DNA of 43,062 bases from a virus: UHGV virus genome UHGV-1377764; one strand, 5' to 3'. A program made the position numbers and the translations under genes. The notes beneath the pieces are model-generated. The model saw only the letters and a list, made by a program, of their open reading frames with translations, made no database searches and was not told the origin of the DNA. This document shows, one piece after another, positions 6,644 through 36,007 of the stretch. Within the stretch, counting starts at the first letter, position 1. Every line of letters begins with the position of its first letter.

Positions 6644-6733
6644 TCCATTAAGTCCTCCCTCATATCTTATGCACTAAGTATAGCACAAACTTTTCATTTG
6701 TGCTATACCTTTTATCTAAAAATATTGATTAAT

Positions 6734-9627: not shown

Positions 9628-9640
9628 TATGATATAATAG
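9628..9640 (+). promoter_or_regulatory. extended -10 promoter motif TATGATATAATAG for rightward operon
   Basis: TGnTATAAT at 9630-9638; weak -35 TTACAC; same 13-mer recurs upstream of many + strand genes. Confidence 0.5.
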
Positions 9641-10192: not shown

Positions 10193-10245
10193 GAGTAATG
10201 AATGAGTTATATGATATCAATACTAAATTAAAGGAGGTGTTTCAT

Positions 10246-10446
10246 TTGCCATATATGTACTGCAATCAAGAAGGATGTAACGAAACAGTTAAGCTACCAG
10301 CACAATACTGTGCCAAACATAAACGCTTAAAGGTACCTGATCCATTACCAGAACCTGAGTCAGTCAAACCGTTACAAGACACAACTCACTTAGACTTATT
10401 AGATAAAGCTAACAAGAGTATGAACACAAAGAAGACTACTAAATAA
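10246..10446 (+). CDS. small Zn-finger protein sharing CxxC-x6-LP-x2-YC-x2-H motif with N-terminus of the HNH endonuclease
   Basis: ORF 10198..10446; probable TTG start 10 nt after AAAGGAGG; YCNQEGCNETVKLPAQYCAKH vs HNH KCAVASCRSYVTLPDHYCDAH. Confidence 0.4.
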   Translation: MPYMYCNQEGCNETVKLPAQYCAKHKRLKVPDPLPEPESVKPLQDTTHLDLLDKANKSMNTKKTTK

Positions 10447-10647: not shown

Positions 10648-11040
10648 ATGAGACAGCGCAAGTGTGCAGTGGCTTCATGTCGCAGCTATGTAACGCTACC
10701 TGATCACTACTGTGACGCACATCAAGGTCACAACAACAGTCAATATAATAAGCATGTTAGATATAATGATGACAACAAGAAGTATAGTGAGTTCTATCAT
10801 AGTACTCAATGGAGGAATGCACGTAAAGCTAAGCTAATGGAGCAACCACTATGTGAGGTATGCTTAGCACAAGGCAAGTATACCAATGCTGACATGGTTC
10901 ACCATAAGATAGAATTAAGAAGTCCAAACGGATGGAAATATAGACTTGATTTAAATAACTTAGAATCAATATGTTACAAGTGTCACAACAAGGAAGAGCA
11001 TAGCTACAGTTGGAAAAATAGAGGTAGGGAACAGCGCTAA
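10648..11040 (+). CDS. HNH endonuclease (packaging-associated, adjacent to terminase module)
   Basis: 130 aa; HNH core HHKIELRSPNGWKYRLDLNNLESICYKCHNKEEH; position immediately upstream of terS region as in HNH-dependent cos phages. Confidence 0.8.
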   Translation: MRQRKCAVASCRSYVTLPDHYCDAHQGHNNSQYNKHVRYNDDNKKYSEFYHSTQWRNARKAKLMEQPLCEVCLAQGKYTNADMVHHKIELRSPNGWKYRLDLNNLESICYKCHNKEEHSYSWKNRGREQR

Positions 11041-11092: not shown

Positions 11093-11302
11093 CCCGCCCG
11101 CCTTTTTATAACGAATTAATCGCTGCCCCCTCTTCTTCGCATGAAATTCTAAAAATGAACTTTCAAAAACGCCCTTTTCCCCTCGTAAACGTGATTTAAA
11201 CCTGGTTTCTTGTGTTGAAAATCAAGGATTCATACTATATATAGTATGTTATTTCGCTTATACGATTTTTCCCCCTATAAACATGATTGAATCCTGGTTT
11301 CT
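11093..11302. repeat. HNH-terS intergenic region: GC-rich decamer CCCGCCCGCC, second GC island, and two ~35-nt direct repeats (ttttcccctcgtaaacgtgatttaaacctggtttct / tttttccccctataaacatgattgaatcctggtttct); candidate cos / terminase recognition region
   Basis: Read directly; repeats at 11176-11210 and 11265-11302. Confidence 0.45.
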
Positions 11303-11389
11303 CTACACAGGGTTCTTTTTATATGATATAATAGAGCTATATAAGGGAGTTAGCCGTTAACTCAAAAATAAAATAAGGGAGGTTATACA

Positions 11390-11572
11390 ATGCCTGCACC
11401 AAAACCAGTGTACGTAAAAGATTTATCAACTGGGCAGACACGCAAATTCAAATCACAATTCGCAGCAGATGATTTCTATAATAAGAAGCGTGGCTACTTT
11501 AAGGATATTAAAACAAAATTAGGCGGACGCAATCGTCACTTTGAAATTACAGAAGCCCCAAAGGAGGGTTAA
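11390..11572 (+). CDS. hypothetical basic protein
   Basis: 60 aa, RBS AAGGGAGG. Confidence 0.4.
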   Translation: MPAPKPVYVKDLSTGQTRKFKSQFAADDFYNKKRGYFKDIKTKLGGRNRHFEITEAPKEG

Positions 11573-12090: not shown

Positions 12091-12555
12091 ATGGCAAGAC
12101 CACGAAAATTATTAAACGCTCAGAGTGGTAACTTGACCACTCAGCAACGAGAAGAGCGTGAGAAGGAGGAAGAAGTACTTTATAACTACGAAAAGTTAGA
12201 CTTTAGTTTTTATCCACCAGGTTTATTACCACAAGCATTCAACGAGTGGGATCGCATAGGAGCGTATGTAGGTGATTTGCCTATTTCTGAGTTAGATGTG
12301 AATACAGTCATTAGATATTGCAACTATAATTATCTATACGCTGAAGCAGTAGAGAAGGTGGCTCAAATGGGCGCTATTGACCCTGAGACAGGCAAAGCGA
12401 ACCCTTGGGTTAATGCCATGAACTCCTATTCAAAAGAGCTAAAAACAGCAACCAACGACTTAGGGCTGACAATCAATTCAAGAATGAAAATTATTCTTCC
12501 AGCTGAGAAAGAGAAAGAAGTGATTGATCCATTTGCGAAAATGTTTGAGGGATAA
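12091..12555 (+). CDS. terS: terminase small subunit, P27 family
   Basis: 154 aa; typical P27-family TerS features; RBS AAGGAGGAG; 1 kb downstream of HNH. Confidence 0.7.
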   Translation: MARPRKLLNAQSGNLTTQQREEREKEEEVLYNYEKLDFSFYPPGLLPQAFNEWDRIGAYVGDLPISELDVNTVIRYCNYNYLYAEAVEKVAQMGAIDPETGKANPWVNAMNSYSKELKTATNDLGLTINSRMKIILPAEKEKEVIDPFAKMFEG

Positions 12556-12626
12556 CCTACACAAAACTAATATTGTGTGCTATACTATGTATAGCAAATG
12601 AGTGGTAATCATTAGATACACAATTA

Positions 12627-12654
12627 TCACAAAAGTCGGATTTTGTGATATAAT
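12627..12654 (+). promoter_or_regulatory. promoter with overlapping 8-bp inverted repeat TCACAAAA-N6-TTTTGTGA and extended -10 TGaTATAAT
   Basis: Read directly; would drive transcription into the GC-rich element. Confidence 0.45.
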
Positions 12655-12660
12655 AATTAA

Positions 12661-12990
12661 TAGGTGGCATCTAATACACCTCTCGTGACACCGCAAGCGA
12701 GAGTATGCTAAAACGCGCTCTAATGAGTAGCCATGTGAGAGTTGGAGACCTTAGCTCACAGCGGTAGATAGTGGTTCACCACACTCCACTATAAAAAGGG
12801 TTGCTGTTGGAAACTGAACAGTCGTGGACGGCGCACGTAAACGACCGCTCGCTACAGTGTCTAGCGAATGCGTGATAGTATGACCCTCTTTGACGACAAG
12901 CACGACAAAGCAGTTAGCCACATAACAGAGGGCGTGGAAACCTGCAGATACTACAATCTCCCTAGTCTAGCTAACTAGGGAGTCTTTTTT
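12661..12990 (+). ncRNA. candidate structured non-coding RNA between terS and terL (GC-rich island, no ORF, own promoter and terminator)
   Basis: ~330 nt with many local helices (CTCTCG..CGAGAG, GTGAG..CTCAC, CGTG..CACG) in a 34% GC genome; longest ORF 35 aa without SD; ends in perfect terminator. Confidence 0.4.
12958..12990 (+). terminator. rho-independent terminator (9-bp stem CTCCCTAGT/ACTAGGGAG + T6)
   Basis: Read directly; immediately followed by extended -10 TGTTATAATAG at 12992-13002 and terL RBS. Confidence 0.75.
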
Positions 12991-13022
12991 ATGTTATAAT
13001 AGTATAAAAGGAGGATACATAT

Positions 13023-14795
13023 ATGTTTGATCCAGTACAAGATTATATAGACCTAATTGAAAAAGGATATGTTGAAGGTAAAAAATACATTGTTGAAGAT
13101 GGTAAATATAAGACAATTAAAGTTGACATTCGTGTAGGTAAGAAAATACAAAAAGCGATTGAACGCCATCAAAGAGAAGTAGAATTATCTAAACAGCCAG
13201 ATTATCCATATATTTATAGACCTGATGAAGCATTACCAGTGATTAAATTTATGGAAATGCTTCCTGATCCAAAAAGTCGTAAACCAATGAAGTTAGCAAC
13301 CTTCCAAAAATTCATCATTGGTTTACTATATGGTTGGCGCAAAAAGCGAGATAATACTAGACGTTTTAGAAAGGCATATATATCCCTAGCACGTAAGAAT
13401 GGTAAGTCGTTAATTGTGGCAGGTATTGCACTATATGAGTTTTTGTTTGGTAAAAATCCAGCAGCAAGCCGTCAAGTAGTCGCGGCAGCTAACACAAAAG
13501 AGCAGGCAGGAATCGTTTTCAGAATGCTTAAATCTCAATTAATGGCACTACGCAGCGTATCAAAAGAAGTGAAGAAAAGAACCACTGTGCGTAGATATGA
13601 TATTGAAGCGAGTGATGAATCAACAGTCAAGCCATTATCCAGTGACGCAGACACACTAGATGGCTTAGATGTTTTGTGTGGTATTCTAGATGAGTATGGT
13701 GAAGCTAAAGATACAAGTATTATTGAAGTATTAGAATCATCACAAGCCCAACAAGTGGAAGGTCTAATTTTAATGATATCTACAGCTACAAAAAACTTAA
13801 ATGGTCCTATGTTCACAATAGATTACCAATTTGTTGATAAGCTACTCAATGAAGAAGTGAAAGCTGATGCCTATCTAGCACTATGTTGGGAGATGGATAA
13901 TCTATCAGAAGTAGATGATGAAGCAAACTGGATAAAAGCCAATCCATTATTAGAAATACCAGAGGCTTATGAGTCAATGATGGAGCATAAACGCAACTCA
14001 CTTGATGAATATAAAGGTAAAATGGATTTATCAGGATGGCTTACAAAAGAAGAAAATTTTTGGGTACAATCATCTAAAGATAGTTTTGTAACCAAAGAAG
14101 AGTGGGATTCCGTCAAAGCATCCAATCGTTATGATATTAAGGGTAGAAAAGTATATATTGGGATTGACTTAGCCAGAACATCAGACATGACAGCCGTTTC
14201 ATGGATCATCCCAATAGAAGAAGAACACAAACTATTACTAGATACACATGGTTTTGTATCTTCAGTTGGTGGCATAGACCATAAACAATCAATTGATAAA
14301 ATACCATATAGACAGTATGAGTCAATGAACCTCATTCATATCTCACAACGTGAGGATGGGTTAATAGACACAGAAGAAATGTGTGATTGGATACGTGATT
14401 TTATAGATTATAATGACTTACAACTGGTAGGTATCTACTATGATCCATTTATGATGGATAAAGCTTTAATTAATCTAAGTAAGACCTATCCCAAAAAACT
14501 AATTGAAGTACCACAGAAAATTAACTATTTATCTTCACCAACCAGAGCCCTGCGTGAGTTAATTCGTAGAGGTGAAGTAATACACACAAATAACCCTTTA
14601 TTGAATCGTGCAGCATACAATGCAATGATTAAAGAGTACAATGACAGCGTTGCAATTGATAAGCAAATCAACAGGAATAAAATTGACTCACTTGACGCTA
14701 TAATAAATGCCATGAGTGACGCTCAATATCACGATTATGATGCACCAACATTGCAAGATTTACTAGATAGCGGTGAGTTTGGTTTTGGATACTAA
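13023..14795 (+). CDS. terL: terminase large subunit
   Basis: 590 aa; Terminase_1-like N-terminal ATPase and C-terminal nuclease regions; RBS AAAGGAGGA. Confidence 0.85.
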   Translation: MFDPVQDYIDLIEKGYVEGKKYIVEDGKYKTIKVDIRVGKKIQKAIERHQREVELSKQPDYPYIYRPDEALPVIKFMEMLPDPKSRKPMKLATFQKFIIGLLYGWRKKRDNTRRFRKAYISLARKNGKSLIVAGIALYEFLFGKNPAASRQVVAAANTKEQAGIVFRMLKSQLMALRSVSKEVKKRTTVRRYDIEASDESTVKPLSSDADTLDGLDVLCGILDEYGEAKDTSIIEVLESSQAQQVEGLILMISTATKNLNGPMFTIDYQFVDKLLNEEVKADAYLALCWEMDNLSEVDDEANWIKANPLLEIPEAYESMMEHKRNSLDEYKGKMDLSGWLTKEENFWVQSSKDSFVTKEEWDSVKASNRYDIKGRKVYIGIDLARTSDMTAVSWIIPIEEEHKLLLDTHGFVSSVGGIDHKQSIDKIPYRQYESMNLIHISQREDGLIDTEEMCDWIRDFIDYNDLQLVGIYYDPFMMDKALINLSKTYPKKLIEVPQKINYLSSPTRALRELIRRGEVIHTNNPLLNRAAYNAMIKEYNDSVAIDKQINRNKIDSLDAIINAMSDAQYHDYDAPTLQDLLDSGEFGFGY

Positions 14796-20569: not shown

Positions 20570-20799
20570 GCTGGGAGGAACATCTTGAAGCAATGGATAA
20601 GATGTACACTGACCTTCTATCCAGTGAGTCTGGAACATGGTCTCTATCAGAAATTAACAACGCAGACTATAATTTACTAATGGAACTATTTACAAAAGAC
20701 AATAAACCTAAAAAAGAAAAACTGCAAGACCCAATAGATTTCTTTGGTACATTTATGAGTCCACAAGATATAGCAAAAGTAAAAGGTGAGACACTTTAG
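20545..20799 (+). CDS. T-extension of tail assembly chaperone (G-T frameshift product C-terminal portion)
   Basis: Frame analysis: G frame = pos mod 3 = 2, ORF 20593 frame = 1, -1 shift links them. Confidence 0.65.
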   Translation, partial: GEKDLSEISWEEHLEAMDKMYTDLLSSESGTWSLSEINNADYNLLMELFTKDNKPKKEKLQDPIDFFGTFMSPQDIAKVKGETL

Positions 20800-20823
20800 C
20801 ACACAGCTAGAGTGTCTCTTTTT
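20788..20823 (+). terminator. rho-independent terminator (GAGACACT..AGTGTCTC + T5) followed by extended -10 TGTTATAATAG
   Basis: Read directly. Confidence 0.65.
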
Positions 20824-20866
20824 ATGTTATAATAGATTAAGAAAGCAAGCAAAAGGAGTGAAATGC

Positions 20867-23800
20867 ATGGCACAAGATAGACCTATAGGAAATATGAAAT
20901 TTGGCATTGGTTTTGATGGGTTTGATGAGTCTTTAAATACATTAGATAAATTAAACAAAGCCTTAAAACAATCAGAGTCAAGTATGAAGGCAACGATGTC
21001 AACATTTGATAAGGCTGGAGCCTCTGCTGAAGACTTATCACGCAAACAACAAGGATTAATTGATACTACAGAATTACAATCAAAGAAAATACAATTGTTG
21101 GAAAAACGTAGAGAGGAATATATTCAAACCTACGGAAAAGAATCCAAACAAGTGGCTAATGTTACAACTCAAATAAACACAGCTACTGTTAAATACAATA
21201 AGTTATCAAAAGAGCTTGACTCAACTAAACAAGCTTACATTCTAGCTAGTGCTGGCGTGGATAAATACGCTTCAGCAATCAAAGACAATGAAAAAGCAAT
21301 GAATGATGAAATTAAAGCATTCAAAGAAGCTGGAGATAAAGCTGGAGAGCTTGAAGCAAAGCAACGTGGACTAACAAAACAAGCAGAGTTAACAGAGCAA
21401 GCCATTGAATCACAAAAACAAGCAATAAACAAAATGGCGCAAGAGTTTGGTGAATCATCAACCCAAGTAGCACAAGCACAAGCTAAATTAGAAGACTTCA
21501 AACGTTCAGCAAAAAATACAGATACACGATTAGATGGTGTAACTAATGCACTATCTGAGTTAAAAAGAGAAGCTTCTAATGTAGACGATAAAGTAGATAA
21601 AGCTGGAGACGCACTTGAAGAAGCAGGTAAACAAGGTAATAAAGCGGAAGCTGGTTTTAAAAACGCAGCCAAAGAATTTAGTGCCTTAGCTACAGGTCTA
21701 GCAGTTGCCATATCAACAAAAGCTCTAGATATGGCAACTGAGGCAGCAGACGCTCTGAAAGAATCATTCAATGAAGTAGTGGAAGCCTCTAATAGATTTC
21801 AGGGCAAAATGGGAATTACGAAAGGTGAATCTAAGCAGTTCCTAAATTTTGCCAATGAGTTAGTAAAATCAGGAATGGTAGACTCATTGGAAGAAGCCCA
21901 AGAGGCTATTACACAAGTCTATCAAACAGCTGGTAAAAAAGTTACACCAGAAGGATTGAAACAATTAACTAAATACGCAATATCATTCAGTAAAACATTT
22001 GATACAGATGTAAATGAGACCATGCGTGGTGCGTCACGTATGATGGAAAACTTTGGGATTAGTGCTGAAGAAGCTTTTGACTTACTTACAGCAGGTGCAC
22101 AAAATGGACTGAATCAATCAAACGAGTTAGCAGATAACATGGCGGAATACTCTCAATTATTTGGTCAAATGGGGTTTACAGCAGAGGAAACATTTAGTTT
22201 ACTTGAAGCTGGTCTAGACGGTGGAGCATATAACTTAGACAAAGTAAATGATTTAATCAAAGAGATGGGGATATCATTAACAGACGGACGTTTTGAAGAA
22301 AACGCAGATATGTTCAGTGAATCAACAAGAAACCTGTTTAATGAGTGGAAAAACGGTAAAGCAACTCAGGGTGCAGTAGTTAAGAGTATGATGAATGACT
22401 TTTCCAATATGGAAGGAGGATATGCTTCTCTAAATAAAGCGAGTACAGTCTGGTCTGCCTTAGGAGAAGACAACTCACTTAAAGTCATCAAAGCAATGGC
22501 AGGAGCTAGTAATTCCTTTGGAGAAACTAAAGGAAGCGCAGAAGATCTGAATAACACTATGACTAACACTACAGCATGGGATGCTTTCACCAACGGAGTG
22601 AAAGGTACGGTCAATTCAATTGCTATCTGGGCACAAGAGTTTACTGGTGGGATGACACAACCAATTGAAAATTTCTTCAATAAAACATTGCCTAATGCCA
22701 TGAAAACCCTTGATTTCTTTTTCTTTTATGTTGAAAACTTCATCTCAAACTTAAAAGATATTATTGGTAAAATGTGGAGCGGAAAAGATACAATAAATGA
22801 CCAACATATTTTAAATATGATGGGATTCAGCTGGGAAAGTATCTGGGCTCTAGATGATTTCATCACACAGGTTAAAGAGAAAGGTGAAGTATTAACTCAG
22901 TATATTAAAGGTTTCTGGCAACTGTTTACTGGTGATGAAGCTACTCAAATGCAAGGATACTCCTTACTACGTTCATTAGGGATGAGTCAAGAAGACATAG
23001 AAGTATTAGAAACAGCTAAAGAAAATGTTAAGACTGCTCTTGATTCTGTTAAAGAAACTATTGTAAGACTTCTTGAAGACGGCTTGGACAAAATGATTCA
23101 AGCATGGAAAGACTTAGTTAAGATTTGGGAGGAGGTAATTGCACCTGATTTATTACCTCTGTTTGAACAGTTTGCTGGATGGCTCAGTCGTATCACAGGT
23201 TACTTAGCAGACATTAGTGGCGCACTAGATAACTTTGGTGGATCAGGAAAACGCAACAGTGACATTCTTATTAATGCATTCACTATATTATGGGAAACAC
23301 TGAAAATAAAACTTGGGCTCATCATGGCAACAATAGAAACAACCATGATTATCATTTCTAGTACAATCAAGATTTGGAGTGATATTTTCAAAGGTGATTG
23401 GGAAGGCGCTTGGAATGGTATTAAAGGTATGTATGATCGCATATCTGATTCAATCAAAACCAATTTGAAAAACACATTCTTAGGTGATATGATTAAAAGT
23501 ATTGAAGACTGGAATATTAGAACAACAAAGGCGTTCACTGGTTGGATTACTGATATATCTATTAAGTTTGGTACATGGCTAACCAACATGAAGACGTGGT
23601 TCAAAAACTTACCAGGAGAATTAGCTGAGAAGTTTAAATCAGGAGGAAGTACATTAGCAAACGCCTTTAAATCTGTATTTAATGGAGCGCTTAAAGCGAT
23701 AGGTAAACCAGTGAATGGTATTATCAAGGGGGCTTCATGGGTACTTGAAAAATTGGGCGCAGAACCTCTGCAAGAATGGGACGTACCGCAATACGCCACA

Positions 23801-25351
23801 GGTACTCCAAAAGGTGGACATCCAATCAATGGGCCAATGATGGTTAATGATGGACGTGGAGCAGAAACAGTTATCACACCAGATGGTAGAGCCTTCATAC
23901 CTAAAGGACGCAACGTTGTTCTAAACGCACCAAAAGGCACACATGTCTTGACAGCAGAAGAAACAGCACAACTTCAAGGTTCAAAAGCGCCTCGTTATCG
24001 TTACAAAAAAGGTACTAACTTCTTTGGTAACATGTGGGACAGTGTGAAAAATGTTGCTGGTAATGTAGGAAACACACTTAAAAATGTAGTAGGTGACGTG
24101 TGGGATTTCATTTCAGACCCTGGGGCGTTAGCTAGGAAAGTACTTGGTGGTTTAGATGTGTTAGGTGGATTGACAAAATATCCATTAGAAGTAGGTAAAG
24201 GCATACTATCTAAAGCCACAAGCGCACTTACTGAAAAAATCACTGGGTTGTTCTCATCAGGTAACTTGGATACATCTATAGGAACAAATGGTGTCTATAA
24301 ATATTTAGCAGATGTTGCTAAGTCTGTGATGAAGAAATTCCCAGGTTTCATGGTAACTAGTGGGTATAGACCAGGTGACCAGTATTCACATGGTAAACGT
24401 AATGCCATTGATATTGCATTGCCAGGTGTCACAGGAGGCTCACCTAGATACACAGAAGCAGCCAACTATGCGTTTGACAAATTCGCTTCCAAGATTGGTT
24501 ACGTAATCACTAATGGTAAGGTTCGTGACCGTTCAGGACAATCAGGTCAACCAGCAACTGGTGCATGGGAGCCATGGCCCCCTGGAGACCACTACGACCA
24601 CGTGCATTTGAACGGTATAAAAGACCCACAAAACACGCAAATATCAGGCGATAGCGTGGGAGGCAGTGGTGTAGAAAGATGGCGTAATGTAGCCATTAGA
24701 GCATTGAAAATGACTGGTCAATACAGCGCAGGAAATCTAAATGCGTTACTAAATCAAATGCGTACAGAGTCAAATGGTAATCCTAAAGCGATTAACTTGT
24801 GGGATCCAAACGCTATGAAGGGTACACCATCAAAAGGATTAATGCAGGTTATTGACCCAACCTTTAGACAATACGCAATGCCAGGGTTCAATAGTAATAT
24901 CTATGACCCATTATCTAACATTCTAGCATCAATCAGATACGCACTGGCAACCTATGGTTCATTAGGAAATGCATATCGTGGGGTTGGCTATGAAAATGGT
25001 GGAATCATCACCAAAGAACACTTTGCAAGACTTGGAGAAGGTAACAAGGAAGAAGTAGTCATTCCACTAACTGGCTCTGGTTTAAAACGTTCAAGAGCTA
25101 TGCAACTACTGGCATATGCCAATGAGAAACTTGGTAAAAACAATGATACACCTACACCATTGAGTGGTAATAATTCTAATCAAGACTTAACCATCTTGAT
25201 TAATTTGATGCAACAACAAAATGAACTCTTAATGGCGTTACTTGATAAGTCAGCTACGATTGAACTTGATGGACGTAAGGTAAGTAAAGAAATTACAAAG
25301 TATCAAGAATCAGAAACACGTAATAGAAATAGACAAATGGGATTAATATAA
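20867..25351 (+). CDS. tape measure protein with C-terminal M15-like peptidase and SLT lytic transglycosylase domains
   Basis: ORF 20786..25351 trimmed to ATG (MAQDRPIGN) 6 nt after AAGGAGTG; coiled-coil N-half; YSHGKRNAIDI...DHYDHVH (LAS/M15-like Zn motif) and ESNGNPKAI...GLMQV (SLT motif). Confidence 0.8.
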   Translation: MAQDRPIGNMKFGIGFDGFDESLNTLDKLNKALKQSESSMKATMSTFDKAGASAEDLSRKQQGLIDTTELQSKKIQLLEKRREEYIQTYGKESKQVANVTTQINTATVKYNKLSKELDSTKQAYILASAGVDKYASAIKDNEKAMNDEIKAFKEAGDKAGELEAKQRGLTKQAELTEQAIESQKQAINKMAQEFGESSTQVAQAQAKLEDFKRSAKNTDTRLDGVTNALSELKREASNVDDKVDKAGDALEEAGKQGNKAEAGFKNAAKEFSALATGLAVAISTKALDMATEAADALKESFNEVVEASNRFQGKMGITKGESKQFLNFANELVKSGMVDSLEEAQEAITQVYQTAGKKVTPEGLKQLTKYAISFSKTFDTDVNETMRGASRMMENFGISAEEAFDLLTAGAQNGLNQSNELADNMAEYSQLFGQMGFTAEETFSLLEAGLDGGAYNLDKVNDLIKEMGISLTDGRFEENADMFSESTRNLFNEWKNGKATQGAVVKSMMNDFSNMEGGYASLNKASTVWSALGEDNSLKVIKAMAGASNSFGETKGSAEDLNNTMTNTTAWDAFTNGVKGTVNSIAIWAQEFTGGMTQPIENFFNKTLPNAMKTLDFFFFYVENFISNLKDIIGKMWSGKDTINDQHILNMMGFSWESIWALDDFITQVKEKGEVLTQYIKGFWQLFTGDEATQMQGYSLLRSLGMSQEDIEVLETAKENVKTALDSVKETIVRLLEDGLDKMIQAWKDLVKIWEEVIAPDLLPLFEQFAGWLSRITGYLADISGALDNFGGSGKRNSDILINAFTILWETLKIKLGLIMATIETTMIIISSTIKIWSDIFKGDWEGAWNGIKGMYDRISDSIKTNLKNTFLGDMIKSIEDWNIRTTKAFTGWITDISIKFGTWLTNMKTWFKNLPGELAEKFKSGGSTLANAFKSVFNGALKAIGKPVNGIIKGASWVLEKLGAEPLQEWDVPQYATGTPKGGHPINGPMMVNDGRGAETVITPDGRAFIPKGRNVVLNAPKGTHVLTAEETAQLQGSKAPRYRYKKGTNFFGNMWDSVKNVAGNVGNTLKNVVGDVWDFISDPGALARKVLGGLDVLGGLTKYPLEVGKGILSKATSALTEKITGLFSSGNLDTSIGTNGVYKYLADVAKSVMKKFPGFMVTSGYRPGDQYSHGKRNAIDIALPGVTGGSPRYTEAANYAFDKFASKIGYVITNGKVRDRSGQSGQPATGAWEPWPPGDHYDHVHLNGIKDPQNTQISGDSVGGSGVERWRNVAIRALKMTGQYSAGNLNALLNQMRTESNGNPKAINLWDPNAMKGTPSKGLMQVIDPTFRQYAMPGFNSNIYDPLSNILASIRYALATYGSLGNAYRGVGYENGGIITKEHFARLGEGNKEEVVIPLTGSGLKRSRAMQLLAYANEKLGKNNDTPTPLSGNNSNQDLTILINLMQQQNELLMALLDKSATIELDGRKVSKEITKYQESETRNRNRQMGLI

Positions 25352-31922: not shown

Positions 31923-31924
31923 TA

Positions 31925-31956
31925 AAAAACCACTGGTTAGACCAGTGGTTTTTTGC
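31925..31956. terminator. bidirectional rho-independent terminator (13-bp stem AAAAACCACTGGT / ACCAGTGGTTTTT, 3-nt loop) where the two gene blocks converge
   Basis: Read directly; A-run on one side and T-run on the other. Confidence 0.85.
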
Positions 31957-33727: not shown

Positions 33728-36007
33728 TTAATCAATATAATTTTTAACTTCTGGAAATTCTTTCATTTGACTATGTGCTTGTTCAATCCGTTCTTTCCAG
33801 CTAGTACCAAACCATAGTACTAGCAGGTCTTCCACTTGGTTTATATAGTACTCTTTGTCAATATCATCAATAGTTATCCATCCTTCACCAATTGCTTCAT
33901 TGTCAATGGCATAGTACTCAGGCGCATTAGGCAAGCCTTTAGTGTAAGAATCATCACCAATAATTGTAGTACCTTCCTCTTCAACAACAGCTCCACGTTT
34001 TACTTTGAATATTTCAACAGATTTGTTAGGGTCTTTTATTGCAAATGTACGATTCACTTTTTGTGCTTTTCGTTCATTACCATAAACATCACGTACTACA
34101 GTATCGTCAAAAGTCCATCCAGTTTTGGTAATCATTTGGAATTGACGTAGTTCATCAGATTCATTGATAAACTCTTTGTAATCTTTACCACTAACAACAT
34201 AATTAATGAACGCATTTGAAACAATCGCTTTAGAGACTTTCAATCCCTTTGTTAGACCAATTGCTCCTTTGACTTTAACTTTACCTTTAGCAGTCACAGC
34301 TAAATAATTATTGACGTCCTTCTGGAAAATAGCTATAAATGGATCATCATCTAATGTGTACCCTGTTCGTTTCATCCAATCATCTGCGATATCATCAATG
34401 GCTTTTTCATCTTCTGCACTAAATGGAATGTAATAGTGAGCATCTGTGTTTGATTGAATAATGGTGGCATGGTCTTCAATCTTTTCTAGTAAATCCCACA
34501 TTGCCATCTGACCAGTAATACACACTAATAACCGCATGCGTGGGTCATACAATTTGTTAAACTCAGCTCCCATTGCACCATATTTAGTATTTAGAGGTAG
34601 TTTATAACCATCAATTAACAACTCAGTTGGAATCTGAATGCCTTTAATTTCAGTAAACTCTTTATTGGAATACTTGGCTTCCATACGTTCATCTAATAGC
34701 ATTTGATAAATATGACGCTTGTCTTCTGGAATGTTTCTTGATAAGTAGTCAAATAAAACCATTGTATTTGGATAAAGTGAACCAACGTCGCGTGCGTGGA
34801 AGTTACCTACATGAATAAATGACTCTTTAGCACCATGTATACCACCTACCCCTAAAACCTCTGTGACGTCTCTACGTGGTACATCTAATGAAATACTGGC
34901 ATGTCCTTTATCATTAGCTTCAAATTCCTCTGTCATAAACGCCTGACGAATGGTCTCTGACTCAATTTCAAATCCTTCTGGTAGTTCATACTTATCTAAC
35001 TCATCACCTCTATCAGGTGTTTTCTCAGCCCCTAATAGTTCAGCTGTTAAATTTGCGTTAGTCATTGATAGTGCCATTTTATCTAAACCAAAGTATAAGG
35101 CAATTGCAGCTTTAGCTACTAACATACCTATGTTTTGTTCAAAGCGTTTTTCCGTAGCTAACACGTCATTTTTACAATATAGTTCGTTCAATACTTGTTC
35201 TTCTTCAGTTAGTTCTCTATCTAAATCAAAGTCTACTTCAGTTTCTTTAATATTAATACCCATGAAAGCACTATGTTCTTTCAAACTAAACCCTCTATTG
35301 TCTTGATACAAATCCATTCCAAAAAGGGGTGTTTTCTTAGTATCAAACATTTTATATGCTAATGCTCTATCATCACTTTCAATGATTGCTTTTGACACAT
35401 GAAACGGGTTTTTACCCTGTAAATATGCACGCATGACATTGGAGTCATATGAGTGTGAGTTATAACCTACAAACAATGAATCTCTATTCGCAAGATAGAA
35501 CTTGCGTAAAGCGTCTAAATCATTATGAATGACTGTCCATTCTTTAGTGAAGTAATCTCTGAAAACAAATAAATTATCTTTTTTAAATACTTCAATATCA
35601 TAAATATAAATTGTTTGTTTTGTTAGTGCCTCGTTTGGTTTATCAGGTAAGTTTTCAACAACCCCTCCTTCTTGGTTAATGGTTACATTTGGAAAACCAT
35701 TGTTGTATTTTAGAGTAATATTCAACTCCTGACCTACTTGGATATCTTCCCATGTTTTCCAATCTTGTTTACGAAACTTCATGATATAAAATGTAGCATC
35801 ACGCCCATCGTTTGTGCTACGTACTTTAATTTCCTTCATCTCTTTACCTTTAGCGCTTAATCGTTCCTCAGCTTTAAGCACTACAACTTGATGAACTCCT
35901 TCCGTCATTGGATCAAAGCTTTTTCCATTACCTGCTAATGCAGAAAATATTTCCAATAGTTTAGATGCTAGTTTTTCAGCACCTTGAAATTCTGCTATGT
36001 TTTTCAT
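33728..36007 (-). CDS. family B DNA polymerase with 3'-5' exonuclease domain
   Basis: 759 aa; Exo I YIYDIE, Exo II YNSHSYD, Exo III YCKND; Pol motif A DVGSLYPN, motif B KLPLNTKYG, motif C-like SNTDAHY. Confidence 0.65.
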   Translation of the reverse strand: MKNIAEFQGAEKLASKLLEIFSALAGNGKSFDPMTEGVHQVVVLKAEERLSAKGKEMKEIKVRSTNDGRDATFYIMKFRKQDWKTWEDIQVGQELNITLKYNNGFPNVTINQEGGVVENLPDKPNEALTKQTIYIYDIEVFKKDNLFVFRDYFTKEWTVIHNDLDALRKFYLANRDSLFVGYNSHSYDSNVMRAYLQGKNPFHVSKAIIESDDRALAYKMFDTKKTPLFGMDLYQDNRGFSLKEHSAFMGINIKETEVDFDLDRELTEEEQVLNELYCKNDVLATEKRFEQNIGMLVAKAAIALYFGLDKMALSMTNANLTAELLGAEKTPDRGDELDKYELPEGFEIESETIRQAFMTEEFEANDKGHASISLDVPRRDVTEVLGVGGIHGAKESFIHVGNFHARDVGSLYPNTMVLFDYLSRNIPEDKRHIYQMLLDERMEAKYSNKEFTEIKGIQIPTELLIDGYKLPLNTKYGAMGAEFNKLYDPRMRLLVCITGQMAMWDLLEKIEDHATIIQSNTDAHYYIPFSAEDEKAIDDIADDWMKRTGYTLDDDPFIAIFQKDVNNYLAVTAKGKVKVKGAIGLTKGLKVSKAIVSNAFINYVVSGKDYKEFINESDELRQFQMITKTGWTFDDTVVRDVYGNERKAQKVNRTFAIKDPNKSVEIFKVKRGAVVEEEGTTIIGDDSYTKGLPNAPEYYAIDNEAIGEGWITIDDIDKEYYINQVEDLLVLWFGTSWKERIEQAHSQMKEFPEVKNYID

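Follow-up and report, generated by a model that had tools for sequence, protein, structure and literature searches.

The DNA examined here (the window) is the virus genome UHGV-1377764 of 43,062 nucleotides (nt), the entire or almost entire genome of a lytic siphovirus of Enterococcus, whose closest records EF36P3, vB_GEC_Ef_S_9, RG1, BUCT630, IME-EFm5, and IME-EFm1 are 85–90% identical in the packaging and head region. On its plus strand lie the small terminase gene terS (12091–12555; Pfam Terminase_4, of the Terminase_4/P27 family, and phrog_83) and the large terminase gene terL (13023–14795; TerL_ATPase and TerL_nuclease domains). Both are complete, each with its own stop codon, ribosome-binding site (RBS), and start codon, and they are separated by a gap of 467 base pairs (bp; 12556–13022). 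This gap very probably holds a selected structured RNA element on the plus strand with a defined and partly pseudoknotted fold, and we favor, with a probability of about 0.6, the reading that it is an independent gene for a modular, structured, and trans-acting non-coding RNA (ncRNA).

The segment 12662–12990 has a guanine-cytosine (GC) content of 48.9%, against a window mean of 34.6% (standard deviation 3.5%, measured over stretches of 329 nt), and ranks first among the 4274 stretches of that length. GC content is 44–52% across 12650–12950 and 27–37% in the flanks on either side. An earlier note on this DNA had pointed out both the 467-bp spacing, now backed by gene calls and domain matches, and a GC-rich core in a genome of about 34% GC, and both observations stand. 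Second in GC content comes a peak of about 48% at 24331–24750, which falls within an open reading frame (ORF) of 1521 amino acids (20786–25351) taken as the tape-measure gene from its size and position; that peak is coding, unlike the one between terS and terL.

We infer transcription of the element from consensus signals at its two ends. The first predicted promoter, P1 (12558–12586, plus strand), begins 3 nt past the terS stop codon and reads TACACA-17-TATACT with TGTG, the extended -10 being TGTGCTATACT; its predicted start near 12593 would give an RNA of about 397 nt. The second, P2 (12626–12654, plus strand), reads ATCACA-17-TATAAT with TGTGATATAAT in the promoter scan, and transcription from it is predicted to begin near 12662, where the folded RNA has its first base; that RNA would extend for about 329 nt to 12990. 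Both were scored as sigma-70-type promoters with the TG extension, and they are two copies of one 28-nt unit (repeat family D1/D2). P2 is the extended -10 promoter previously proposed at the 5′ end of the element, to which P1 is now added; P1 is the more widely conserved of the two, being kept at the same position in all aligned relatives and also in E. faecalis-type phages. The promoter class TRTGNTATAAT is enriched in the window (36 sites vs. 18 ± 4 in shuffles), and exact copies also precede the capsid and tail genes, which suggests that the RNA uses the ordinary strong promoter type of the phage. Exact sites of this class are found at 9628, 16796, 19519, 20191, 20823, 27494, and 42610.

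P2 is overlapped at its -35 and extended -10 by a perfect 10-bp palindrome, TATCACAAAA-GTCGGA-TTTTGTGATA (12625–12650), which had been seen before as an inverted repeat of 8 bp with the same spacer of six bases; the repeat and its position hold, and its length is corrected here. One compensatory change separates it from the version in dArtagnan and KEN21 (TAACACAAAA/TTTTGTGTTA). It coincides, however, with a -35-like ACACAA and with TGTG, the extended -10 motif, and P1 and the site 6684–6702 have similar CACAA..TTGTG pairs; the palindrome may be an operator or may simply follow from the promoter sequence.

At the other end, an intrinsic terminator (12958–12990, plus strand) is formed by a perfect 9-bp stem and a run of six T residues, CTCCCTAGT-N7-ACTAGGGAG then TCTTTTTT as DNA and CUCCCUAGU-CUAGCUA-ACUAGGGAG then UCUUUUUU as RNA. 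Its hairpin (12958–12982) is one of only two terminator-like sites that the scan returned in 6 kb. The helix is 100% paired in the relatives with two covarying base pairs at the stem base, and its inner stem and loop, CUAGUCUAGCUAACUAG, is nearly invariant, with two single-base variants among 25 sequences, which is unusual for a terminator loop. The loop holds the self-complementary hexamer UAGCUA. The terminator scan found no terminator between terS and this site, so the same hairpin would also end the transcripts of the terS operon. Directly past it, terL is preceded by its own extended -10 promoter, P3 (TATGTTATAAT, 12990–13000, plus strand), followed by the RBS AAGGAGG (13008–13014) and the terL ATG at 13023, and TATGCTATAAT together with the RBS is kept 3′ of the terminator in both E. 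faecium-type and E. faecalis-type relatives. Terminator and terL promoter are thus as the earlier note had described them. An independent small RNA gene is expected to have its own promoter and Rho-independent terminator, and consensus matches to both are present and kept in relatives, as far as sequence evidence goes. The inner stem and loop of the terminator is also seen, as CTAGTCTAGCTAACTAG, in unrelated 72-kb E. hirae phages (EH93P1 and others, e.g., 2501–2553 of locus L014).

Read from P2, the ncRNA body (12662–12990, plus strand, about 329 nt) begins with a 5′ domain and continues through a middle domain and a 3′ pseudoknot module to the terminator. The 3′ module (12849–12953, plus strand, about 105 nt) was examined in an alignment of 25 distinct 3′-part sequences (A2) with six hand-drawn helices, the terminator included. 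The other five are the hairpin P-a (UCGCUA 12849–12854/UAGCGA 12862–12867), with three pairs changed on both sides, P-d (CGUG 12871–12874/CACG 12901–12904), with one such pair, P-e (AGUAU 12877–12881/AUACU 12948–12952), which never varies except for one G·U pair, the 6-bp P-b (CCCUCU 12884–12889/AGAGGG 12927–12932), with two, and the 12-bp P-c (GCAGUUAGCCAC 12910–12921/GUGGAAACCUGC 12934–12945), with six. Because the 5′ strand of P-c lies inside the loop closed by P-b, these 6-bp and 12-bp helices form a pseudoknot, which is well supported by the alignment; P-d crosses both P-e and P-b. Standard pairs fill 94.0% of the 1075 cells of A2, compared with 25–48% when the 3′ partners are shifted by 1–3 columns, and 14 pairs are changed on both sides, compared with 1–2 in the shifted controls. 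None of 500 shuffles reached the observed covariation score. The best supported helix is P-c, whose six covarying pairs come in at least four different helix sequences (variants include GUGGAUAUGCAC/GUGUAUAUUCGC, GCUAGUACAC/GUGUACUAGC, and GCUAGUAUCCAC/GUGGAUACUAGC). Independently of the hand drawing, RNAalifold, a program that cannot predict the pseudoknotted P-b, returned P-a, P-d, P-c, and the terminator with nine compensatory pairs.

The 5′ domain was treated in the same way, using a MAFFT alignment of 16 sequences (A3) in which helices were counted against column-shifted controls. Its first part (12666–12709) is the helix P1h (GGCAU 12666–12670/AUGCU 12705–12709, plus strand), which encloses the hairpin H2 (CUCUCG 12680–12685/CGAGAG 12698–12703, plus strand) with its 12-nt loop UGACACCGCAAG. 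It is followed by the variable hairpin H3 (12717–12731, plus strand) and by H4 (12734–12760, plus strand), a UGUGAG/CUCACA stem with the 15-nt loop AGUUGGAGACCUUAG. Overall, 94% of the A3 cells are paired, against 30–43% in the controls, and five pairs are changed on both sides. H2 is 96.9% paired with two covarying pairs, and H4 is 100% paired, and in 7 of the 16 sequences three of its pairs have changed at both positions. The H2 loop is invariant, and so is the H4 loop among relatives, as AGUUGGAAACCUUAR, of which the window holds one exact occurrence. There are three types of H4 stem, GUGAG, GACGG, and AGGAG, the last of which (AGGAG/CUCCU) belongs to an alternative 5′ domain, “type B,” that has equivalent helices. 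H3, read by eye, has a CUC/GAG core in the window, and at its position the relatives carry other hairpins of 5–7 bp (e.g., GUGUGAG-UACG-CUUACAC, GUAUGAC-UAAG-GUUAUAC, and UUACUC-UGAC-GAGUAA) or a longer insert, so that the hairpin is kept and its sequence is not.

The middle domain (12770–12848, plus strand) is made of H5 (AGUGG 12770–12774/CCACU 12786–12790), an A-rich linker (AUAAAAAGGGUUG, 12791–12803), H6 (CUGUU 12804–12808/AACAG 12817–12821), H7 (CGUG 12823–12826/CACG 12834–12837), and the conserved ACGACCGC (12841–12848). These three helices were read by eye from few independent events. H5 (GUGG/CCAC) becomes GAGG/CCUC in the alternative module of KEN18, H6 becomes CGGUU/AACCG in locus L105, and H7 becomes CGUU/AACG in locus L055; H6 has apical extensions of varying length and is missing in some relatives. 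Candidate long-range pairings among the H2 loop ACCGC, GCGGU at 12761–12765, and ACCGC at 12844–12848, and between the H4 loop AACCUU and AGGGUU, are all invariant.

Taken over the two alignments, the compensatory changes expected of a structured ncRNA amount to 14 and 5 double-changed pairs vs. 0–2 in the controls. G·U cells exceed A·C cells in the tested helices (32 vs. 10, and 11 vs. 2), the pattern expected if the plus strand is the folding strand. The candidate structured ncRNA that had been proposed from the window is in this way supported by relatives that conserve it and covary in its predicted helices. All three of the local inverted repeats cited in that proposal exist: CTCTCG/CGAGAG (12680–12685/12698–12703) and GTGAG/CTCAC (12735–12739/12755–12759) pass the A3 count, and for CGTG/CACG (12823–12826/12834–12837) the support is the eye reading of a single relative, L055 (CGTT/AACG).

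The gap could instead be the remnant of a decayed protein gene, a small-protein gene, or what is left of a self-splicing intron, and ORFs that might suggest this do exist: 36 amino acids on the plus strand and 56 amino acids with a GTG start on the minus strand, besides the 30-amino-acid ORFs annotated in KEN21 and an HNH gene in the DELF1 gap. The two ORFs are the longest in the gap, and neither is kept as an ORF. Substitutions in the 56-amino-acid ORF against seven relatives are spread evenly over the codon positions (e.g., 5/8/7, 10/10/12, and 12/12/11), alignments contain indels of 1, 4, and 5 nt, and ORF frame and length differ among relatives. The gap hence lacks a protein-coding signal, as an RNA gene should, and the protein-coding reading is rejected on the codon positions, the indels, and ORFs that are broken differently from relative to relative. 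The earlier statement that there is no credible ORF holds for the absence of a protein signal; the longest plus-strand ORF is 36 rather than 35 amino acids, and the minus-strand one has to be added. As for an intron, terS and terL are complete, and no group I or group II intron matched even at E ≤ 10 in Rfam 15. Altogether, a decayed gene or intron strikes us as extremely improbable.

A DNA-level element has also to be considered, i.e., a cos or pac site, a terminase-binding site, or a recombination hotspot in which the palindromes act as DNA, given that the region adjoins the terminase genes and is highly mosaic with clear recombination breakpoints. However, the termini of IME-EFm1 have been mapped experimentally, with a 9-nt 3′ overhang (PMC4445525), and the corresponding site in the window consists of CCTTTTTATAACGAATTAAT (11103–11122), the 9-mer CGCTGCCCC (11123–11131), and CTCTTCTTCGCATGAAATTC (11132–11151). 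CCTTTTTATAACGAATTAAT is identical to the mapped IME-EFm1 terminus and CTCTTCTTCGCATGAAATTC is one base off (C in IME-EFm1, T in the window), which places cos between the HNH gene (10648–11040) and terS, about 1.5 kb upstream of the element. The element is therefore not the cos site. The strand-specific G·U pairs, the covariation of long-range and pseudoknotted pairings, and the bracketing by promoter and terminator likewise speak against a role as DNA, and we regard this explanation as largely refuted. Lack of conservation or covariation, a protein-coding region, and a cos site at this place had been named beforehand as what would count against a structured ncRNA, and none of these was found.

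The element could not be assigned to a known RNA family by eye, and nothing credible emerged from a search of Rfam 15, which includes pRNA, GOLLD, ROOL, HEARO, OLE, raiA, riboswitches, small ribozymes, group I/II introns, 6S, tmRNA, and RNase P. At gathering score there were 0 matches in the whole window, and at E ≤ 10 the element region gave just four weak matches of 14–17 bits (E 0.8–6.3), compared with gathering scores of 39–66. One of these, a preQ1-like match at 12770–12797 (17 bits, E 0.8; gathering score 39), covers just H5 and the A-run and was rejected. ARAGORN predicted 0 tRNA or tmRNA genes in the window. A hammerhead was considered because of CUGAUGAG at H3 in some relatives and was dismissed: the motif is not conserved (CUAAUGAG in the window, CUGCGGAG in dArtagnan), and no GAAA/stem II arrangement fits. 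A riboswitch or attenuator was set aside as well, as reading revealed no conserved alternative pairing with the terminator arm and terL has an independent promoter before it. TRF reported no tandem repeat, and no direct-repeat families exist beyond the promoter copies; with no tandem direct repeats and with terS and terL as neighbors, the RNA antitoxin of a type III toxin-antitoxin system and a CRISPR-like array were discarded. A phi29-type pRNA was excluded since RF00044 gave no match and a complete HNH-terS-terL cos system is present. Full-text literature searches returned neither an account of this RNA nor transcriptome data for these phages.

The gap element matches 26 records in a BLAST search against 50,697 phage records, all of them Enterococcus phages (E. 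faecium-type), and pattern scans add further members from IMG/VR and metagenomes. Most of the >120 IMG/VR matches to a 15-mer of the H4 loop were discounted as coding-sequence coincidences in other phages. Most of the 26 records have no annotation in the region; phage 9184 has just a “terminator” and an “RBS,” and KEN21 has six 30-amino-acid “hypothetical proteins.” A covariance model of the 3′ module (R1) scored 158 bits at 12848–12989 and found no second copy of the module in the window, where its one other match is weak (21 bits) and falls, through the terminator part, on 31924–31955. That site is a bidirectional terminator, AAAAAACCACTGGT-TAGA-CCAGTGGTTTTTT, between the convergent late (plus) and early (minus) gene blocks. 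R1 found nothing in the E. faecalis-type loci, in the outgroup phages, or in 19 bacterial loci that match an exact 18-base pattern of the 3′ module. These 19 were all the matches in 185,579 representative bacterial genomes; none is in Enterococcus and none is accompanied by a second motif of the RNA. Plasmids gave no BLAST match.

Among the relatives, gap length ranges from 173 to 1927 bp and pairwise matches are patchy, so the region is a mosaic of blocks with clear recombination breakpoints. In KEN21 (locus L003, 1199–1983) the 3′ module is present in two diverged tandem copies that are 78% identical, and a contig found as L024 and L183 holds RNA modules that add up to about 840 nt and include three H4 hairpins (L024 1–860, read on the minus strand) and carries an ORF resembling a DPPY-motif methyltransferase inserted between terS and the RNA. 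Other inserted genes are the HNH gene in the DELF1 gap and a small ORF in EF36P1. Two loci, L105 and L191, have the 5′ and middle domains and no 3′ module, and in EF36P1 and L019 the 3′ module follows another kind of 5′ module, EF36P1 lacking the 5′ domain. Several relatives show a variable insert or a second module copy between the 3′ module and the terminator. The shortest case is L190 (IMGVR_UViG_3300045988_052888, 1599–1773), in which terS is 97% identical and the 173-bp gap contains just P1, one hairpin termed “Ma” (loop GCGCCUCUUAAUAAUGCG), the terminator, and P3. In Aramis (L013 1387–1508), 61 bp that take in the P3 region are perfectly duplicated in tandem.

A corresponding cassette is found in the E. 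faecalis EF4-like phages (phiSHEF4, IME-EF4, EfaCPT1, and others), whose terS is 55–67% identical; it matches 109 records, again all Enterococcus. Its layout is a promoter directly after terS, ORF-free hairpin modules that span 320–600 nt, a terminator, and finally TATGCTATAAT, the RBS, and terL. These cassettes (L196–L203, e.g., phiSHEF4 34799–35401) have just the first, Ma-type module in common with the E. faecium group, and their modules also show compensatory changes, e.g., UUAAGUGUUGU...ACAACACUUAA vs. UUAACUGUUGU...ACAACAGUUAA. Some GenBank records of EF4-like phages run the terL or terS annotation over the cassette. Outgroup phages with homologous HNH-terS-terL genes have no such gap: terS and terL overlap by 8 nt in Staphylococcus IME1367_01 and are separated by 2 nt in phi13, 85 nt in Streptococcus Javan220, and 151 nt in a Latilactobacillus phage. 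The cassette is thus specific to a clade of Enterococcus phages and built from exchangeable units, none of them universal.

Promoter, structured RNA, and strong terminator follow one another just ahead of terL and the whole set of late genes, in the same orientation as terL and about 19 kb of structural genes. This order might point to cis-acting transcriptional control of the late operon, either as a short terminated leader like lambda PR′-tR′ or as an RNA of the put or EAR kind that renders the polymerase transcribing it resistant to termination. Polymerase from P1 or P2 would then stop at 12990 or read into terL and the structural genes, and the palindrome over P2 and the compact pseudoknotted module 5 nt upstream of the terminator would suit such a switch. 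Yet the consensus extended -10 P3 and a short leader are kept before terL in both phage clades, and a conserved promoter at this place implies that terL needs no read-through. No conserved alternative pairing between the 3′ module and the 5′ arm of the terminator was found on reading, and the module is parted from the terminator or from terL in several relatives, be it by an additional hairpin, another copy of the module, or whole ORFs. The lack of a universal module also fits poorly with one specific polymerase-modifying structure. For these reasons we hold cis-control to be rather unlikely.

A plainer explanation is that the gap is a structured 3′ untranslated region or insulator of the terS operon with no RNA function of its own, which would shield terS mRNA from 3′ exonucleases and uncouple the transcription of terS and terL so as to set subunit ratios. 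Transcripts of terS should run into the element, as no terminator intervenes, and terminator and P3 are the sole parts present in every relative, including the 173-bp gap of L190. On the other hand, one or two dedicated promoters stand between the terS stop codon and the RNA, invariant loops and a covarying pseudoknot far exceed what 3′-end protection needs, and in L024 an inserted gene separates terS from the RNA. Outgroup phages, moreover, manage with overlapping terS and terL. We judge this explanation quite unlikely.

We therefore return to the independent gene for a modular trans-acting RNA. Host sigma-A RNA polymerase would start at P1 (about 12593) and P2 (about 12662), both directly after terS, and stop at the terminator (12958–12990), yielding RNAs of about 397 and 329 nt; the terminator would close the terS operon as well, and terL would restart from P3. 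As the comparison of relatives shows, the RNA folds on the plus strand as a chain of separately conserved units, namely the 5′ domain, H5–H7, and the 3′ module of about 105 nt. Because modules are exchanged, duplicated, and lost, and the cassette is missing from the outgroup junctions, the locus looks accessory and moron-like rather than part of the packaging machinery. Outgroup absence, module loss, and gene insertion on either side argue against an essential packaging role and against a simple terL leader, and the same three observations fit an accessory, fast-turnover locus of host interaction. A stable RNA that binds proteins or serves as a decoy is thus favored; its modules would act in trans during infection, in host takeover or in conflict with host defenses.

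Several points weigh against this interpretation or its parts. Trans action as a decoy is argued from turnover and context rather than from direct observation, and a promoter, a short terminated RNA, and then the late genes make a layout that also fits cis-regulation. Transcript ends and abundance are predictions from consensus motifs. Searches for an antisense target in the phage genome gave just chance-level matches (best 20 nt, 90% identity, E 0.69), and no target, partner protein, or host homolog was found, host genomes having been scanned with one exact pattern. Within the fold, P-e shows no covariation and P-d has one covarying pair. P1h was counted as 80.3% paired with no both-sided change, a low value that stems from one-base shifts of some rows in the MAFFT alignment; read by eye instead, its helix is GGCGU/ACGCU, GGUGU/ACACC, and GGCAU/AUGCC in relatives. 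The small number of haplotypes means that independent compensatory events are fewer than the cell counts, and the shuffle control ignores relatedness. Finally, the minimum free energy is unremarkable against shuffles (z-score -1.5 on the plus strand, -1.9 on the minus strand), so that the case for structure rests on the comparative evidence.

A bolder and improbable version would be that the terS-terL gap of Enterococcus cos-type siphoviruses is a dedicated, moron-like “RNA cassette array” in which independently folding modules are gained, duplicated, and swapped, or else that the element is a terminase- or capsid-associated cofactor or self-assembling RNA. As an array, each module may neutralize or titrate a different host factor or defense sensor, and the array may evolve rapidly and include a new pseudoknotted fold of about 105 nt. 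As a self-assembling RNA, the near-invariant UAGCUA of the terminator loop may allow kissing dimers. If the cofactor or self-assembling version is true, the element would be a dedicated-gene counterpart of the terS-terL RNAs that are sensed by the cyclic oligonucleotide-based antiphage signaling system (CBASS) of staphylococci.

The closest parallel by location is the CBASS-activating bacteriophage RNA (cabRNA) of staphylococcal phages, an RNA of about 400 nt that activates the CdnE cyclase (Banh et al., 2023, PMC10686824). Both are structured viral RNAs from the terS-terL junction of a Gram-positive siphovirus, rich in hairpins and with a sequence that is not conserved between phages; just the locus is in common. 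The sequence of cabRNA falls within the coding regions of terS and terL, no promoter or terminator is dedicated to it, and its definition is a functional one, through the binding and activation of CdnE during infection, whereas the Enterococcus RNA occupies a dedicated ORF-free cassette, is selected for structure, and shares no sequence similarity with cabRNA. A packaging role, if any, would resemble that of the phi29 pRNA (RF00044), also a phage-encoded structured RNA with its own promoter, through loop-loop contacts and protein binding. pRNA belongs, however, to protein-primed podoviruses that lack terS, and the Enterococcus RNA differs in that close relatives lose most of it and outgroups with the same terminase have none.

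GOLLD and ROOL are ncRNAs of about 600–800 nt. The Enterococcus RNA recalls them in that they are large, complex, GC-rich ncRNAs of unknown function from phages and prophages of Firmicutes, recognized by covariation (PMC12286853). Unlike them, it is a variable chain of small modules and has no Rfam match; GOLLD and ROOL are much larger, have a fixed architecture, and are in Rfam. Two further systems, the lambda PR′-tR′ “6S” leader, which depends on antitermination by Q, and the HK022 put RNA, which folds and then modifies the very polymerase that is making it, share with the element a constitutive promoter, a short terminated transcript, and late genes downstream; they differ in that here a conserved promoter follows the terminator and RNA content varies between relatives. 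No Q-like gene or qut site turned up, and no search was aimed at either. A large IMG/VR survey (Fremin et al., 2023, PMC10690425) reports 14 unnamed candidate structured RNAs (csRNAs) that are regularly located upstream of a putative large-terminase gene, and the Enterococcus element could be among them; the text of the article names no Enterococcus phage motif and describes no function or modular architecture.

We classify the element as a new family within the known broad kind of phage-encoded structured ncRNAs, for which a modular cassette organization is unusual. Large and intricately folded RNAs of bacteria and phages are rare, and earlier cases turned out to be ribozymes, ribonucleoprotein scaffolds, or classes that are still unsolved; the present candidate, at about 330 nt and with a covariation-supported pseudoknot, has no entry in Rfam 15. 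Counted together with the E. faecalis-type cassettes, it is present in well over 100 Enterococcus phages that have been sequenced. According to the record descriptions, many of these came from sewage and were isolated on hosts of clinical type, among them E. faecium and E. faecalis, and GenBank records leave these gaps blank or fill them with spurious 30-amino-acid ORFs. Modules that come and go in this pattern are not usual in a structured RNA; they recall how accessory host-interaction loci turn over. Since the junction is the one that yields cabRNA, a role of terS-terL RNAs becomes directly testable, and the RNA can be deleted without touching coding sequence.

Some further features were noted upstream of terS. 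An ORF of 82 amino acids (10198–10446) has a partial HNH endonuclease match (phrog_144, residues 11–44) and looks like an HNH fragment upstream of the intact 130-amino-acid HNH gene at 10648–11040. A promoter at 11304–11332, with a TACACA-like -35 and an extended -10 of the TRTG class, lies ahead of the operon that follows cos. The first gene 3′ of cos (11390–11572) encodes 60 amino acids, is strongly basic, belongs to phrog_10805 (function unknown), and is kept in all relatives; its product may be a nucleic-acid-binding protein.

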